Positions 1,833 to 32,782 of a stretch of 64,000 nucleotides of DNA are shown one piece after another. Every line of letters starts with the position of its first letter. Positions within the stretch are counted from its first letter, which is position 1. The position numbers and the translations under genes were made by a program. Location of the stretch: assembly GCF_056746865.1 (NCBI RefSeq), contig NZ_CM163382.1; one strand, given 5' to 3'. The notes under the pieces were generated by a model. That model had not been told where the DNA came from and searched no databases. It saw nothing but the letters and a program-made list of their open reading frames with translations.

Positions 1833-2588
1833 TTAACGCGTTTTTTCGCTGCTTTCCACTACCGGGGGATTTTTCCTCAGTGACTCTCCCTGAAGGACCA
1901 CCCGGTGTGAGTTATGTACCAGTCTGTCCAGGATGGCATCTGCTGTTGTTGGGTTCTCCATCAGACCATGCCATTTATCTACCGGGAACTGGCTTACCAC
2001 TATCGTGCTGCTTTGTCCGTAACGATCCTCTATGAGCTCCAGAAGGTCATTACACTGGGCGTTACTTAACTGTTCCAGCCCCAGATCGTCCAGGATTAGA
2101 ACCTGTATTTTTTGCAACTGTTTCAGATATTTCAGCCAGCTGCCATCAACACGTCCCTGAGCCAGTTGTTCCAGTAATCGCCCGGTTCTACAGTACCGGA
2201 CGCTGTGTTTCTGTCGACATGCCTGTTCGCCCAGCGCATTGGCTATCCAGCTCTTGCCACATCCTGTCGGACCGGTTATCAGCAGGTTTTTCCTGTGGGT
2301 TATGTAGTGGCCGTTCAGCAGTTCTCTCATCTGTTCAGCCCGCAGACCTCTTGAGGCCGGATAGCGCAGCCCTTCCGGTGTTGCCTGGTATTTCAGGCCG
2401 GCATTTTTTCTCAACCGTGCCACACGGCTGTTTTCCCTGCTCAGAAGCTCGTCATCAACCAGCAGCGTCAGCCTTTCCTCGAACGACAGTTCGTCGTAGG
2501 TCTGAGGCGTTTCCCGCTGCCGTATCAGGCTCCCGGCCATCGCCGGGAGTTTCAGTTGGGTCAGTTTGTTTAACAGGTTATCACTCAT
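1833..2588 (-). CDS. istB: IS21-family transposition helper ATPase IstB
   Basis: About 251 aa from ATG at 2588 (MSDNLLNKL..); Walker A motif GPTGCGKS and a DnaC/IstB-like AAA+ core; immediately downstream of istA. Confidence 0.85.
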   Translation of the reverse strand: MSDNLLNKLTQLKLPAMAGSLIRQRETPQTYDELSFEERLTLLVDDELLSRENSRVARLRKNAGLKYQATPEGLRYPASRGLRAEQMRELLNGHYITHRKNLLITGPTGCGKSWIANALGEQACRQKHSVRYCRTGRLLEQLAQGRVDGSWLKYLKQLQKIQVLILDDLGLEQLSNAQCNDLLELIEDRYGQSSTIVVSQFPVDKWHGLMENPTTADAILDRLVHNSHRVVLQGESLRKNPPVVESSEKTR

Positions 2589-2604
2589 ACTGTTGTTCCT
2601 TCTG

Positions 2605-4140
2605 TCAGTGGTAGTAGCCCGGACCACGCAGGTTTTCATGCTCTGAAGCATATGCCGGATGTTGTTCGCCCTGGCGGGATAATGGAAGCTCCAGGTTCTC
2701 CCGATGGTGACGCAGCAGATTGTCGATAAAGCGTCTGTCAGGGGCGTTATAGTGCAGGGCAACGTAACAGGCCTTTTCCAGCCGTTCCGGGCCGTATTTT
2801 TTCTGAAGTGCCAGCAGCCCCAGAACTGCACGATAAGCCAGTTCCGGATGGGGTTTTGCCTTCAGCATGGATTCAACCACCCGGCCTGTGGACGGGCCCG
2901 TACGTTTTCCCTGCTCGATCAGGCGTTCCGGTGTCCATGTCCCGTGCTGCCGGTGGCGCTCTGGCATGTGAAGCGGATTGGTTGTGTGTTTATATTCATG
3001 TGTGCTGCGCGGATGTTGCGCCACACACTGCCCCTTGTGCCAGAGCTGTACCACCGACTGCCCCGCCTTCAGTGACAGACGCTGACCGACCAGTTCGTGT
3101 GGAACGGAGTACCAGTGACGGGCATATTCAACGTGGTAGTCAGGGCCAACCTTCACAGCTTTGTATTCCGTGTATTCATAAGGTGCCAGAGGCAGCGGAG
3201 AGAGTGCTGGCGCATCCAGTATGCGGAAGCGTTCTGCACGGGTTTGATTGCCGTACCCCTTCATTGGCCGGTTATTCATGTCTGTCAGTAACTCCCTAAG
3301 GCGCGCATTCAGCGCCCTGAGCGTGTGGAAGGTTTCATTACGGATGCGGGCAAGAAGCCATCGTTCGACGATGAGGACGCCGTTTTCTGCTTTTGGTTTA
3401 TCTTTAGGTTTGCGTGGTCGGGCCGGGATGATAACCGTGCCATAGTGCTCAGCCAGTGCCTGATAACTGTCGTTGATGACAGGCTCATATCGATCGGCCT
3501 TTTTCACTGCGCTTCTGAGGTTATCGGGGATGAGCAGCTTCGGTACGCCGCCCAGGAAGGTCAGGCAACGGCTGTGGGCATTTAACCATGACATCATGTC
3601 CTGACCTTCGCACGCTTCAACGTAGGTATAGTTGGACGCCCCCATTACGGCCACGAAGATTGCCACGCGGCGTATCTCACCGGTGTCCGGATTAATAACA
3701 GGAACCGTAGGACCACAGAAGTCGATAAAAAGCTTTTCGCCGGCACGATGCTCCTGGCGCATGGAGAGACGTCGCGTTTTTTTCCACTCCCGGTAGCAAC
3801 GGCAGAAGTGCGAGTATCCCATCGCTTTGTTACCCGCCTGTGCCTTGTATTCCATCCACAACAGTTGCCGCGTCACACCTGGTTTTCTCATTTCCGTATC
3901 GAGGTACAACATGTCAGGCATTACAAGCTCTGATGCAAAGGTGTCTTTGGGCGGAAAAATGAGTTTCTCCAGCGTGTCATGGGATATATCAGCAGGTAAT
4001 GGCCATGACAGAGAAGAGGCTTTGAAGCGGGCAAGAACCTCAAAAACGGTTGAGGCGCTGATGTGTAACGTCAGTCCGATACAACGGTTAGTCAGCTTCT
4101 TGTCGAACTTGAGCTGAAGAATCTTAAAACAGGTTTCCAT
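2605..4140 (-). CDS. istA: IS21-family transposase IstA (HTH + DDE)
   Basis: 512-aa product from ATG at 4140 (METCFKILQ..) with AGGAG 5 nt upstream; N-terminal HTH-like region and central integrase/DDE-like region; followed 16 nt later by istB. Confidence 0.8.
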   Translation of the reverse strand: METCFKILQLKFDKKLTNRCIGLTLHISASTVFEVLARFKASSLSWPLPADISHDTLEKLIFPPKDTFASELVMPDMLYLDTEMRKPGVTRQLLWMEYKAQAGNKAMGYSHFCRCYREWKKTRRLSMRQEHRAGEKLFIDFCGPTVPVINPDTGEIRRVAIFVAVMGASNYTYVEACEGQDMMSWLNAHSRCLTFLGGVPKLLIPDNLRSAVKKADRYEPVINDSYQALAEHYGTVIIPARPRKPKDKPKAENGVLIVERWLLARIRNETFHTLRALNARLRELLTDMNNRPMKGYGNQTRAERFRILDAPALSPLPLAPYEYTEYKAVKVGPDYHVEYARHWYSVPHELVGQRLSLKAGQSVVQLWHKGQCVAQHPRSTHEYKHTTNPLHMPERHRQHGTWTPERLIEQGKRTGPSTGRVVESMLKAKPHPELAYRAVLGLLALQKKYGPERLEKACYVALHYNAPDRRFIDNLLRHHRENLELPLSRQGEQHPAYASEHENLRGPGYYH

Positions 4141-27836: not shown

Positions 27837-28817
27837 TCACCTTTCGCGCCAAAACTGCAAAATTGCTTCTACAAATCTGTCAGAAATAATCCCCCGACGG
27901 GCTGCAGTGCTGAAATGACTGCTTCGCAGTGCCGTCGTCCAGTTCTCCGGTGACCGGTACGCTGAACCGTAATATCCCGTGCTTAAATCGTCCGGGTCTT
28001 CATCAGGCGCGTTCGTCAGTCCTCTTTCACCTTGTTGCTGGAAGTCGACGAAAATAATATTGGCTAAAACATTATTTTGATAATTGCCATAAATAGCTTC
28101 ATACGAATGCGGGAAATTTTCTTTCCAGTACCAGGTGGTATCGCCGCAAAACCACGGCGCGTCAGTAATATTATTAAGCTGAGAATGGTATTGTTTTAGA
28201 TCCCTACGAAAGGCTTCAACCATATGATTAAAGTGTTGAGGGTGTGACGCGTAGTCACTGGTCATTAAGTCAAATTCGCCTTGCATCCAGCATGCGCCGA
28301 GGAATTTGTTCTGCGGATTTTTTGCCAGTGCGGCTCGCGTTCTGCTGACTAAATCCTGGTACAGCGGAGTATCCGTTCCCCAACGACAAGCATCATGGCT
28401 GGCTCCGTGCCGTTCTGAATATGTCCCTTCGCTGCCCGCGGTAAAAGCCGATCCGCCACGGCAACACGGAACGATAAGAATCCCTGCATTATCAGGAATG
28501 AAGGGCAGTAATTTCCGTGCAATATGCAGTGCCTGGCCAACGGTGCCGTACTGTGTTTGATGATTCGTTGCCAGAGGATGGTGATAACCCTGCATATCCT
28601 GAACATCGTGTGGGCAGTGAGTCAGTGGAATAATGTCGTTAAAGTGACATGGCGGGCCTCCGGGATGCGTATGCGCAAATCTCGCTAATTGTTTAATTCT
28701 GGGATGAGGCGCATCTTCCCTGTCCGGTAATGGCAGTCCTTCGCCATACGCCATGGCATTAGACTGACCAGCAACGGTAAGAACATAGTAATAATCGGGC
28801 GATATTATTGCGTTCAT
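27837..28817 (-). CDS. nanS: sialate (9-O-acetyl-N-acetylneuraminate) esterase
   Basis: 326 aa from ATG at 28817 (MNAIISPDYYYVL..); SGNH/sialate O-acetylesterase-like. Confidence 0.85.
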   Translation of the reverse strand: MNAIISPDYYYVLTVAGQSNAMAYGEGLPLPDREDAPHPRIKQLARFAHTHPGGPPCHFNDIIPLTHCPHDVQDMQGYHHPLATNHQTQYGTVGQALHIARKLLPFIPDNAGILIVPCCRGGSAFTAGSEGTYSERHGASHDACRWGTDTPLYQDLVSRTRAALAKNPQNKFLGACWMQGEFDLMTSDYASHPQHFNHMVEAFRRDLKQYHSQLNNITDAPWFCGDTTWYWKENFPHSYEAIYGNYQNNVLANIIFVDFQQQGERGLTNAPDEDPDDLSTGYYGSAYRSPENWTTALRSSHFSTAARRGIISDRFVEAILQFWRER

Positions 28818-28881
28818 ATAAATTTCGCGTAATTGAAATGACAAATTGATAGCAGGGCCCCTTTACCGGGGCCCTGAAGCG

Positions 28882-30007: not shown

Positions 30008-30724
30008 CTACAGTTTAAATGACACACCAATGCGATAACTGTTTTCCGATAAATTATCTCTGCCGTTGTAAACACCCTGACGGTCAAGGTAGTCATATTC
30101 TATGTATGGCGTAATATCGGGCGTCATATGGTATTGTAGAACAAATGCATTTTCCGTCGCCCATTTCTTATGGTTTGCATAGCGATAATCGTTCTGTTTG
30201 CTGTATAGCGTCGTTTGCCATGCGAAGGTGAAATCACTATTAATATGGTAAGTGACATATCCATCCCAACGATGAACGTTATCACGAGACATATCACCGG
30301 ATAAGTCTTGTTGTCGGTAAGCTTTCCAGTCGTAACGATAGCGAATGCCAAAATTAAGATCTTTTGTCGCGTCCCAGGACAGTTTTACGTAGGGTCCGTA
30401 GCGTGTGCCGTTGCTGCTAAAATGCGTTAACATTCCCGGGCGCACCGTCCATTGATCATCAAGTTTAATCGCGTAATTAACTTCAACCTGAACATCATTG
30501 AGTGCGGCATTTTCCTTTTTATTATCATGAATGGTATTCCAGGTATTACTTTCCATGCTTGCCCACCATCCATTTTGCCATCCCTCACTGACTTTGAGTC
30601 GAGTCTCATAGGCGTGGCTTCCACTACGATATCCACCACGTACGTCCAGTGTCGCAGCCTGAGAAATTAATGGGGACGAAAAGCACAGTAATAATACGCC
30701 AGAAAGTATTTTAGCCTTTTTCAT
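30008..30724 (-). CDS. nanC: N-acetylneuraminic acid outer-membrane channel (KdgM-family porin)
   Basis: 238 aa from ATG at 30724; signal peptide and beta-barrel pattern ending in ..RIGVSFKL. Confidence 0.85.
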   Translation of the reverse strand: MKKAKILSGVLLLCFSSPLISQAATLDVRGGYRSGSHAYETRLKVSEGWQNGWWASMESNTWNTIHDNKKENAALNDVQVEVNYAIKLDDQWTVRPGMLTHFSSNGTRYGPYVKLSWDATKDLNFGIRYRYDWKAYRQQDLSGDMSRDNVHRWDGYVTYHINSDFTFAWQTTLYSKQNDYRYANHKKWATENAFVLQYHMTPDITPYIEYDYLDRQGVYNGRDNLSENSYRIGVSFKL

Positions 30725-31147
30725 AAATTTCACTCATTTGTAGGATACAGAAAGCAATACAAAGCCCGCATAAACAATTAGCATTTATGTTGTGTAATAT
30801 TTTTTTGCCAGGCTTATAGTGTCTTTGGCAACCGGTAGCTGTATTTTATATTTTTTTGTATAAGGTCTCCTGTGAAAAATCTCTTTTCACATTATTTAAA
30901 TAAACAGAGATCCAGATTAAATACCTGAGTATAAAATCTCTTCTGATGTTTAATTGATTTGAATGTTCGTAAGCTATATCACTTACTCAATCCATTTTAC
31001 CCAGAGTCATAAAATAGAATGTCTGTTGATCTCATTTTCATATTCCTTTCAGACTGAAGTGCGTTTTCATCACCCGATGAGAAAGAACTGAAGTGATGTT
31101 TGCCATAGATTGCGAGATGCCCTGTCTCATTGACTATCTTGGTGCAC

Positions 31148-31167
31148 CTTTATACCTGTTATACCAG
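31148..31167 (-). promoter_or_regulatory. NanR-type operator (GGTATA repeats: rc = CTGGTATAACAGGTATAAAG) in the nanC-fimB intergenic region
   Basis: Two to three GGTATA hexamer repeats read on the minus strand, about 420 bp upstream of the nanC start codon. Confidence 0.6.
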
Positions 31168-32179
31168 ATCAAAAATCACGCAATCCATACAACAAAACCA
31201 GATTTGCAATTCGTGTCACAAAATATGTCGATCTTTTTCTAAGAGGAAGATGCCATGTGAAGCCAGACGAACACTTGCGGTGGTCTTCAAAAACTAAAGA
31301 TCTTAGTTTAACTATTTGTTTTATAAATAATTTATTTAGAGTCTAAACAAGGGGAGCTTTGCAAGCTAACTCAGTGAGCTTGGTGAAAATCAGTGTTTAC
31401 CCGCCATCAGGCTGAGCATAATTCTCATCATGAAATATGTTTCCTGGTTTGTGGCTTGTAACTGGTCACTTCTGAAGTCGATCTGGAGAGGCTTGTTGAT
31501 GTTGGTGTTTTCAGGATGATGTTTCACTTAGTTTGTTTGCCGTATCGCCCGGCGAATGGCTGTGATTGAGGAAGGTTTAAGTCGTAGTGACCAAAGCTAT
31601 ATTTACCAACGAATGTAGATGAAAAAATCATCTCCTGCGTTCCCCCATATCTCCAGGATAAAAAGGAATGTAACAATCTCATGGCGTAAGCTGACGAATC
31701 AGCAGGAATAATCGCTAGGGACCTAAGAATTAGCATGATAATAGCCACTAAGAAATTACTGCGCTCCATGAAATAGCCATTTTGTGGCAAATGGAGTTGA
31801 CTAATAATGTCATATGTGAGACGGCTAGTTGAACGAATATTAAATTTTGCTGAATTTTTTATGTTGATTTTACTTGTTACAGAACATATCACATGATATA
31901 TAGATAAGATTAGTTGCATTAATGATGAGGGTTATTATTAGATTCGTATCCGATTGATAAATATATAAAGGTACATAGCATGCAAGAGCATGGCGTTTGT
32001 ATGGCAACGTTATTATAATTAACAGTTGCTACTCCATTTAAGTTCACTCAGAAGAACTGGTCCACTTACGTTAGTTATTAAGCAAACGTTCGCTTTTATA
32101 AACATAATCAGGATAAAAATGTTGGATTATTGCTAACCCAGCACAGCTAGTGCGCGTCTGTAATTATAAGGGAAAAACG

Positions 32180-32782
32180 ATGAAGAATAAGGCTGATAAC
32201 AAAAAAAGGAACTTCCTGACCCATAGTGAAATCGAATCACTCCTTAAAGCAGCAAATACCGGGCCTCATGCAGCACGTAATTATTGTCTGACTTTGCTTT
32301 GTTTTATTCATGGTTTCCGGGCGAGTGAAATTTGTCGATTGAGGATTTCGGATATTGATCTTAAGGCAAAGTGTATATATATCCATCGATTAAAAAAAGG
32401 CTTTTCAACAACGCACCCGCTATTGAATAAAGAAGTTCAGGCTTTAAAAAACTGGTTGAGTATCCGTACTTCGTACCCGCATGCTGAGAGCGAGTGGGTA
32501 TTTTTATCACGTAAGGGGAATCCGCTTTCTCGGCAACAGTTTTACCATATTATCTCGACTTCCGGTGGTAATGCCGGGTTGTCACTGGAGATTCATCCGC
32601 ACATGTTACGCCATTCGTGTGGTTTTGCTTTGGCGAATATGGGAATAGATACGCGACTTATCCAGGATTATCTTGGGCATCGCAATATTCGTCATACTGT
32701 CTGGTATACCGCCAGCAATGCAGGGCGTTTTTACGGCATCTGGGATAGAGCCAGAGGACGACAGCGTCACGCTGTTTTATAG
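32180..32782 (+). CDS. fimB: tyrosine recombinase FimB (fim switch recombinase, ON<->OFF)
   Basis: 200 aa from ATG at 32180 (MKNKADNKKRNFLTHSE..); integrase-family catalytic region HMLRHSCGF..HRNIRHTVWY. Confidence 0.95.
   Translation: MKNKADNKKRNFLTHSEIESLLKAANTGPHAARNYCLTLLCFIHGFRASEICRLRISDIDLKAKCIYIHRLKKGFSTTHPLLNKEVQALKNWLSIRTSYPHAESEWVFLSRKGNPLSRQQFYHIISTSGGNAGLSLEIHPHMLRHSCGFALANMGIDTRLIQDYLGHRNIRHTVWYTASNAGRFYGIWDRARGRQRHAVL

Follow-up and report, generated by a model that had tools for sequence, protein, structure and literature searches.

The nanC–fimB intergenic region of Escherichia coli and its NanR operator

INTRODUCTION

What is the role of the tandem GGTATA repeats that lie deep within the DNA separating the divergent genes nanC and fimB of Escherichia coli? 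Repeats of this hexamer are bound cooperatively by dimers of NanR, a repressor of the GntR type that is released by Neu5Ac. Both NanR and NagC activate fimB, and their inducers lower the expression of fimB and hence the FimB-driven switching from OFF to ON (PMC3173223 and reviews). Mutations in nanR and nagC lower a FimB-LacZ fusion (PMC3173223), and work from the Blomfield and Plumbridge laboratories has reported that activation occurs through the NanR operator ONR and the two NagC operators ONC1 and ONC2 (PMC3173223). One review gives the opposite signs for the action of NanR, in conflict with the laboratories that did the work.

An earlier note on this DNA had proposed that NanR and NagC sites between the two genes tie sialic acid and GlcNAc to nanC, to fimB and to fim switching, and this agrees with the literature. 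In the present analysis we have asked whether the repeats are the operator through which this control is exerted, how they are placed relative to the two promoters, and how well they are preserved. With a probability of about 95%, we conclude that this DNA is the known nanC–fimB divergent regulatory region of E. coli, in which the GGTATA repeats constitute ONR, the operator bound by NanR.

RESULTS

The nanC–fimB intergenic region

The window analysed is a stretch of 64,000 nucleotides from contig NZ_CM163382.1. The nanC–fimB intergenic region occupies positions 30725-32179 of this window (1,455 bp), equivalent to 4539502-4540956 of the K-12 sequence NC_000913.3; K-12 positions are converted into window positions by subtraction of 4,508,777. 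In the list of open reading frames the region is flanked by a minus-strand gene on one side and a plus-strand gene on the other. Mapping of the RefSeq K-12 annotation identifies the former as nanC (30008-30724, minus strand), which encodes the N-acetylneuraminate outer-membrane channel, is the first gene of nanCMS and ends with its start codon at base 30724. The latter is fimB (32180-32782, plus strand), beginning at 32180 and encoding the tyrosine-type DNA invertase of the fim switch (NCBIfam NF007370, E = 2e-138). The nanC reading frame as listed begins further upstream, at a GTG at 30733, than the annotated ATG at 30724.

The GC content of the intergenic region is 36.1%, compared with 49.3% for the window as a whole, and varies between 30 and 43% in a 300-bp profile. 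RefSeq annotates no feature inside it in 30 sampled genomes. It is thus the unusually long, AT-rich and non-coding region that the earlier note had described. A search of 30500-32400 against Rfam at a permissive threshold gave no match. When 5,426 complete E. coli genomes were searched with megablast, 5,020 had a match with a query coverage of 80% or more; the identity was 100% in FDAARGOS_497 and 99.9% in K-12 MG1655. The region differs from that of MG1655 at two single bases, 31337 and 31654, neither of which is within a known site.

The GGTATA repeats and the NanR operator

ONR is located on the minus strand at 31143-31165, an assignment based upon its exact and unique repeats, its position relative to the fimB start site, its conservation and published SELEX. 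Read along that strand it comprises GGTATA (31160-31165), ACA, a second GGTATA (31151-31156), AA and GGTGCA (31143-31148). The full site is taken as 31143-31165 because the array continues as AA-GGTGCA past the second GGTATA. The reverse complement of 31148-31167, in which GGTATA repeats had been remarked upon previously, is exactly CTGGTATAACAGGTATAAAG. Even when three mismatches were tolerated the window contained no other match, and 100 shuffles yielded none at all. The tandem GGTATANNNGGTATA (GGTATA-ACA-GGTATA, 15 nt, 31151-31165) also occurs just once in the window. We sought at least two direct GGTATA repeats separated by 2-3 nt, and ONR contains such a pair. The third unit, GGTGCA, is degenerate, matching the repeat at 4/6 positions, and is GGTACA in strain E69. 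The third perfect repeat of the canonical (GGTATA)3 is therefore absent; the nanC operator is known to have this form, and the site is not excluded on that account. The spacing of the units is the same as that of the three-repeat operators of nanA and nanX. NanR binds DNA containing two perfect repeats with a KD of 25 nM, compared with 20 nM for three, while a single repeat is bound poorly; two NanR-DNA complexes, not three, are formed on the two-repeat DNA.

A Dam GATC site read from the sequence at 31167-31170 is separated from ONR by 1 bp. According to a methylome study NanR binds within 5 bp of a GATC at nanA, nanC and yjhB (PMC5155068), and the arrangement GATC-T-GGTATA is also present at nanX and in most nanA operators.

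The position of the repeats can be compared with that of the mapped operator. Published work locates ONR, ONC1 and ONC2 in the interval that begins some 760 bp before the fimB start site and ends some 470 bp before it (PMC3173223). Counted from the start site derived below, ONR occupies -766 to -744, so that the repeats and the mapped NanR operator are in alignment. The operator positions rest on statements in the secondary literature (McVicker 2011, the FITBAR paper, Horne 2021 and reviews), together with our own arithmetic.

Might the tandem be simply a chance feature of AT-rich intergenic DNA, without function? The region is indeed AT-rich, and GGTATA as a single hexamer occurs 24 times in the window compared with 19 expected, which is no enrichment. 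But this cannot be said of the tandem, given the uniqueness of the 15-nt sequence and the failure of every shuffle to match the 20-mer. Furthermore, the sequence is identical to that of the nanA operator, which is conserved across the Enterobacteriaceae, and genomic SELEX places a peak of NanR binding in the nanC/fimB spacer. The matter is decided by the conservation of the site, which is presented below after consideration of the NagC operators.

The NagC operators and the DNA between them

Both of the fimB NagC sites are given by sequence in the FITBAR paper (PMC3098098, Table 1), and exact matches to each are found on the plus strand. ONC1 (the published 'fimB1' site, TGCAATTCGTGTCACAAAATATG) is located at 31205-31227, and ONC2 (the 'fimB2' site, CATAATTCTCATCATGAAATATG) at 31417-31439; the latter spans -492 to -470 relative to the start site derived for fimB. 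A weight matrix was constructed from eight non-fim NagC sites, the fim sites themselves being excluded. When applied to the 64-kb window this placed ONC2 at rank 1 with 20.1 bits, while ONC1 scored 11.9 bits and was fourth of about 64,000 positions, above the 99.99th percentile.

In 10 of 11 sequences ONC2 starts 212 bp from the start of ONC1, and one of the ten is that of strain E69, in which the spacer is just 66% identical. A fixed spacing of this kind would be compatible with looping of the intervening DNA. Three overlapping matches to the IHF consensus WATCAANNNNTTR form a cluster at 31309-31336, each with one mismatch, there being no exact match to that consensus in the region. Halfway between the centres of ONC1 and ONC2 is position 31322, which falls within this IHF-like cluster. 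The cluster may correspond to the IHF site reportedly placed 'midway' between the fimB NagC operators by Sohanpal et al. 2007. In an alignment of eight strains the segment 31309-31336 is among the most variable parts of the region. A second GATC, also read from the sequence, lies 2 bp from ONC1 at 31230-31233, and is probably the Dam site that El-Labany et al. 2003 reportedly described as protected by NagC. It has been lost in one of the eight strains (L095) and in E69.

Conservation of the operators

How well is the operator region preserved? Alignment of the eight diverse E. coli strains gives 170 variable columns out of 1,469, yet there are only two (31171 and 31199) within the block 31141-31232, and ONR itself is invariant. 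The same contrast is found in the larger sample. Of the 5,099 complete genomes that match the 92-bp block 31141-31232, which contains the NanR operator and the first NagC operator, 3,998 (78%) carry it without change. By comparison, only 94 genomes (2%) have an identical copy of the control 92-bp spacer 31260-31351, and just 3,149 give any match to it. A tandem that is invariant across E. coli while the neighbouring DNA varies is not a product of chance. The difference between the operator block and the control spacer refutes such an origin, to which we assign a negligible likelihood.

A more divergent example is provided by strain E69, obtained through a scan of species-representative genomes. 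The identities there are 22/23 for ONR, 39/39 for the block 31166-31204, 22/23 for ONC1 and 21/23 for ONC2. Outside these elements the sequence has diverged substantially, with 66% identity in the spacer falling to 57% over the next 200 bp, and 57-83% in the flanks of the 39-bp block. The possibility that the E69 locus had been rearranged at the operator was considered and rejected, the alignment being that of an ordinary diverged orthologue.

The intergenic region is therefore present in most complete E. coli genomes, and the operator block is unchanged in the majority of those matching it. The earlier note had named two observations by which its reading could fall: misalignment of the repeats with the mapped NanR operator, and their absence from other E. 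coli. Since the repeats align with that operator and are present in other E. coli, neither was made.

The fimB promoter and its associated sites

The positions given above relative to the fimB start site were derived from the published SlyA sites. The SlyA operators OSA2 and OSA1 lie at -194 to -167 from the start of fimB transcription (PMC3173223, McVicker et al. 2011). Their published sequences are located on the plus strand of the window at 31715-31726 (OSA2, CTAGGGACCTAA) and 31730-31741 (OSA1, TTAGCATGATAA), so that by back-calculation the start site is at 31908/31909. The promoter is thus assigned to 31874-31909 on the plus strand, with hexamers read from the sequence: a -35 element TTGTTA (31874-31879), a 17-bp spacer and a -10 element TATATA (31897-31902). 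The 5' untranslated region, from the derived start site to the ATG at 32180, is about 271 nt (31909-32179). The segment 31836-31939, which includes the promoter, is without any variable column among the eight strains. A consensus scan of the region for promoters and terminators reported neither the nanC nor the fimB promoter, and returned fewer promoter-like sites than shuffled sequences; it carries no information here.

Two H-NS sites located from the sequences in the same source, H-NS3 (31706-31715) and H-NS2 (31735-31744) on the plus strand, overlap the SlyA operators, the whole block extending over 31706-31744. H-NS protects fimB from about -500 to +150, and SlyA counteracts it independently of NanR and NagC (PMC3173223).

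On the minus strand a 131-aa open reading frame (31524-31919), which the earlier note had considered to be poor in coding character, covers the fimB promoter as well as the SlyA and H-NS sites. In the window this frame begins with an ATG and is uninterrupted, and its first ~70 codons are conserved among strains, which might suggest a real small protein encoded divergently from fimB. However, in MG1655, where the region is 99.9% identical, the single-base difference at 31654 creates an in-frame stop codon. In the other seven strains 1-bp indels at 31702, and in some also at 31628, alter the frame. Where both indels are present the frame is restored with replacement of the residues between, and four of the seven then reach stop codons. 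There is no match to a Pfam family, and the frame was never annotated by RefSeq in the 30 sampled genomes. Conservation of its 5' part is explained at the level of the DNA, because the SlyA and H-NS sites lie there together with the fimB promoter. The judgement on its coding character was thus sound. By these comparisons the 131-aa frame is not a gene but a spurious reading frame, and we regard a genuine protein product as very improbable.

The relationship of ONR to the nanC promoter

ONR is 419 bp from the start codon of nanC and 1,015 bp from that of fimB. It had previously been described as far upstream of both genes. That is true of both start codons, and of the fimB promoter, but probably not of the nanC promoter, which the operator most likely overlaps, judged by the architecture of nanA and nanX. 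At nanA the start codon is only about 46 nt beyond the operator, and therefore the operator there must overlap the promoter. By analogy ONR probably sits on the nanC promoter itself, as at nanA and nanX.

The elements of such a promoter can be tentatively assigned. A CRP-like site on the minus strand (TGTGACACGAATTGCA, 31205-31220) lies wholly inside ONC1, and with two mismatches it is the only one in the intergenic region with two or fewer. The distance from the CRP-like centre to the operator, counted by hand, is 46 nt for nanA, 47 nt for nanX and 47 nt for nanC, in a three-promoter comparison using the rows for nanC, nanX and E. whittamii nanA only. The conserved block between ONR and ONC1 (31166-31204, minus strand) would form the upstream half of the nanC promoter, as indicated by its conservation and by the block that it has in common with the nanX promoter. 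We infer that the -10 element is TATAAC (31158-31163), inside repeat 1, with a start site near 31150. Our literature search found no mapped nanC start site, and two reviews differ in describing the position of the nanC operator. The predicted start site near 31150 leads to a putative 5' leader of about 426 nt (30725-31150, minus strand). The leader is 83% identical in E69, and has weak collinear similarity to that of nanX.

Two possible roles for the leader were considered and rejected. A riboregulator was rejected because the RNA was no better folded than shuffled sequences (z = 0.19) and there was no Rfam match. A leader peptide encoded by a 30-aa reading frame at 31038-31130 was rejected because its ATG is lost in E69 and it spans several variable positions.

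With the inferred promoter on ONR and the CRP-like site inside ONC1, NanR and NagC would be ordinary promoter-proximal regulators of nanC. Might this be the whole of their function? ONR would then serve nanCMS only, as a promoter-proximal repressor site, and the effect on fimB would be indirect, whether through nanC transcription, supercoiling or GlcNAc-6-P acting on NagC. The layout of ONR and ONC1 is the same as at the nanA and nanX promoters, and on this account the primary origin of the site would therefore be a nan promoter. Moreover, the site is about 750 bp from the fimB promoter, and it is known from the literature that the catabolism of sialic acid yields GlcNAc-6-P, which inactivates NagC. 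However, ONC2 and its strict 212-bp spacing have no obvious role in a simple repressor model for nanC. Activation of fimB is also said to be independent of nanC transcription, in work of Sohanpal et al. from 2007. In addition, fimB has been reported to be activated by each of NanR and NagC, by way of ONR and of ONC1 with ONC2 (PMC3173223). Action at nanCMS alone is therefore decidedly unlikely, and we retain the reading in which ONR and the NagC operators act on both genes.

DISCUSSION

The assignment of the nanC–fimB region is correct, and the region has been known in detail since 2003-2007. What is mildly new is comparative in nature. There is a sharp contrast in conservation between the operators and the DNA around them, a loop length fixed at 212 bp over a fast-evolving spacer at 31245-31416, and an apparent paralogy of the nanC and nanX promoters that includes their leaders. 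By-products of the analysis are a coordinate-level map of the published sites, their footprint at the population scale, and the verdict that the 131-aa reading frame should not be called as a gene.

How might control be exerted? When sialic acid is absent NanR dimers bind cooperatively to the repeats of ONR, and when GlcNAc-6-P is absent NagC occupies ONC1 and ONC2, probably so that the 212 bp between them form a loop about an IHF bend near 31322. At nanCMS, NanR would cover the inferred -10 element and start site while NagC at ONC1 would cover the CRP-like site, and nanC would therefore be repressed until sialic acid arrives. At fimB the same bound proteins, about 470-770 bp upstream, raise transcription from the promoter at 31874-31909, which is otherwise silenced by H-NS, with SlyA helping independently. 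Sialic acid or GlcNAc removes the activators, and fimB expression therefore falls. There is then less FimB-driven OFF-to-ON inversion of the fim switch, and fewer cells make type 1 fimbriae. As to how activation might act from about 750 bp away, we think it likelier that a complex of NanR with NagC-IHF-NagC relieves silencing of the H-NS type, or alters the architecture of the DNA locally, than that RNA polymerase is contacted directly.

In this way the region lets E. coli read two host-derived amino sugars whose levels rise in mucus turnover and inflammation. The response is that the sialic-acid porin operon goes up, and the recombinase that switches type 1 fimbriae on goes down.

The locus analysed here is the same as the fimB control region of K-12, with its order ONR/ONC1/IHF/ONC2, described by El-Labany (2003), Sohanpal (2004, 2007) and McVicker (2011). 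The sequences of the NanR, NagC and SlyA sites are identical in the two, and they lie at the same distances from the fimB start site.

Comparison with the nanA operator, (GGTATA)3 of nanATEK-yhcH, reveals both close similarity and clear differences. The first 20 nt of ONR are identical to it, a GATC lies 1 bp upstream in both, and both have a CRP-like site centred 46-47 nt upstream of the repeats. But nanA has three perfect repeats with the start codon about 46 nt beyond, whereas at nanC the third unit is GGTGCA and the start codon is 419 bp away. In the scan of species-representative genomes the nanA-type context is widespread in the Enterobacteriaceae, while the nanC type was found only in E. 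coli.

The promoter-operator of nanXY (yjhBC) is likewise similar. Over 77 bp that take in the CRP-like site, the promoter and the operator, the two sequences are 83% identical (E = 2e-19), and the first 20 nt of ONR are again identical to the nanX operator. The distance from operator to ATG is 441 nt for nanC and 434 nt for nanX, and there is weak collinear similarity between the leaders. There are differences too. All three repeats of the nanX operator are perfect, and it is not known to take part in the control of a divergent gene; nanXY is carried by about 15% of isolates compared with about 93% for nanCMS. These likenesses invite the speculation that the nanC and nanX promoters are duplicates of one module of ~100 bp, comprising a CRP/NagC site, a promoter and a NanR operator, and that the duplication included a leader of ~430 nt, the length of which was then preserved. 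The control of fimB would then be a later co-option, and divergence of the NagC loop spacer could tune the fimB set-point. Taken as a whole we think this scheme unlikely. If it were true the long leaders would carry a regulatory role that has not yet been described, and a loop fixed at 212 bp over quickly diverging sequence could let different lineages tune the set-point of fimB.

Lastly, the paired NagC operators may be compared with the two-operator loops of NagC at nagE-nagB, chb and glmU. As at fimB, these have paired 23-bp sites that are needed together, with looping implied, and the same matrix fits them all. The disposition of the promoter is different, however. In nagE-nagB, chb and glmU a repressor loop is formed over the promoter, whereas at fimB the loop would function as a distant activator, with the promoter about 470 bp past the nearer site.

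Possible paralogy of the nanC and nanX upstream regions

The regions upstream of nanC and of nanX (yjhB), a nan gene with its own NanR operator, look alike outside the operator itself, and comparison of their sequences suggests that they may be paralogous over this wider extent. The pair compared was 30725-31300 of the window, taken on the minus strand and containing the NanR operator at 31143-31165, and 2587-3160 of the nanX locus L002. These share a 77-bp block of 83% identity and a further, collinear match of 28 bp (window 31031-31058, E = 0.001), while the global alignment of the two leaders scores z = 4.6 against shuffled sequences. The distance from operator to ATG is 441 nt for nanC and 434 nt for nanX. 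No function was found for these long leaders in the present analysis.

Enterobacterial nan operator DNA is also present in three assemblies that carry other organism labels (L007, L073 and L076). A Bacteroides MAG has a contig of 3.3 kb with E. coli nanC-fimB, a Methylobacterium assembly has a nanX-type contig of 265 bp, and 'Chryseobacterium sp. 18061' has a nanA-type operator whose flanks differ very little from the corresponding ones in Citrobacter sp. 18056 (L064). All three occurrences are probably due to contamination.

Variation of the nanC–fimB region among strains

How variable is the nanC–fimB region (30725-32179)? Over this region just two bases, 31337 and 31654, distinguish the window from K-12 MG1655, and none distinguishes it from strain FDAARGOS_497. 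The peak of variability is the spacer (31228-31416) between the two NagC sites upstream of fimB, ONC1 (31205-31227) and ONC2 (31417-31439). In the divergent E. coli strain E69 this spacer is 66% identical to that of the window, and a search of complete E. coli genomes found identical copies of a 92-bp piece of it (31260-31351) in only 94 genomes. The length of the spacer is constant despite the change of sequence, with the starts of ONC1 and ONC2 212 bp apart in 10 of 11 sequences. At 31658, 12 bp are inserted in strain PMV-1. In the eight-strain alignment one base at 31702, a short distance upstream of the H-NS3/OSA2 sites for H-NS and SlyA (31706-31726), is absent from the window and K-12 and present in all seven other strains.

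In single strains fimB is lost or broken. The homology of EC11 (L099 4190-4960) to the window stops at the fimB promoter (31874-31909), at about 31916. An IS1A element lies there, beside a deletion that has taken out fimB together with most of the fim operon and left a fimbrial-gene remnant adjoining gntP. Strain 1000 (hit H29) gives the same truncated match in the genome search. In SSGNw2 (L096 2254-3053) an ISL3-like ISEc53 transposase gene splits fimB after about 200 bp.

In RefSeq annotation, nanS of EC11 and of one MG1655 record is an incomplete pseudogene that lacks the C-terminus; the pseudogene annotated at L001 527-1030 corresponds to about 28251-28754 of the window. In contrast to these annotations, the ORF listing of the window shows an open 335-aa ORF at 27837-28844.

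A further NagC-like palindrome and the sign of NanR regulation

The palindrome TTTATTCTTTTACATGAAATAAA at 10447-10469 ranks second in the window by NagC matrix score (14.3 bits). It adjoins a GntP-family transporter gene and is located some 100 bp upstream of a DeoR/LsrR-like regulator ORF (9362-10348, minus strand).

For NanR, a review (PMC4797297) gives nanCM and nanATEK as 'activated' and fimB as 'repressed'; the signs in PMC3173223 and PMC8012715 are the opposite.
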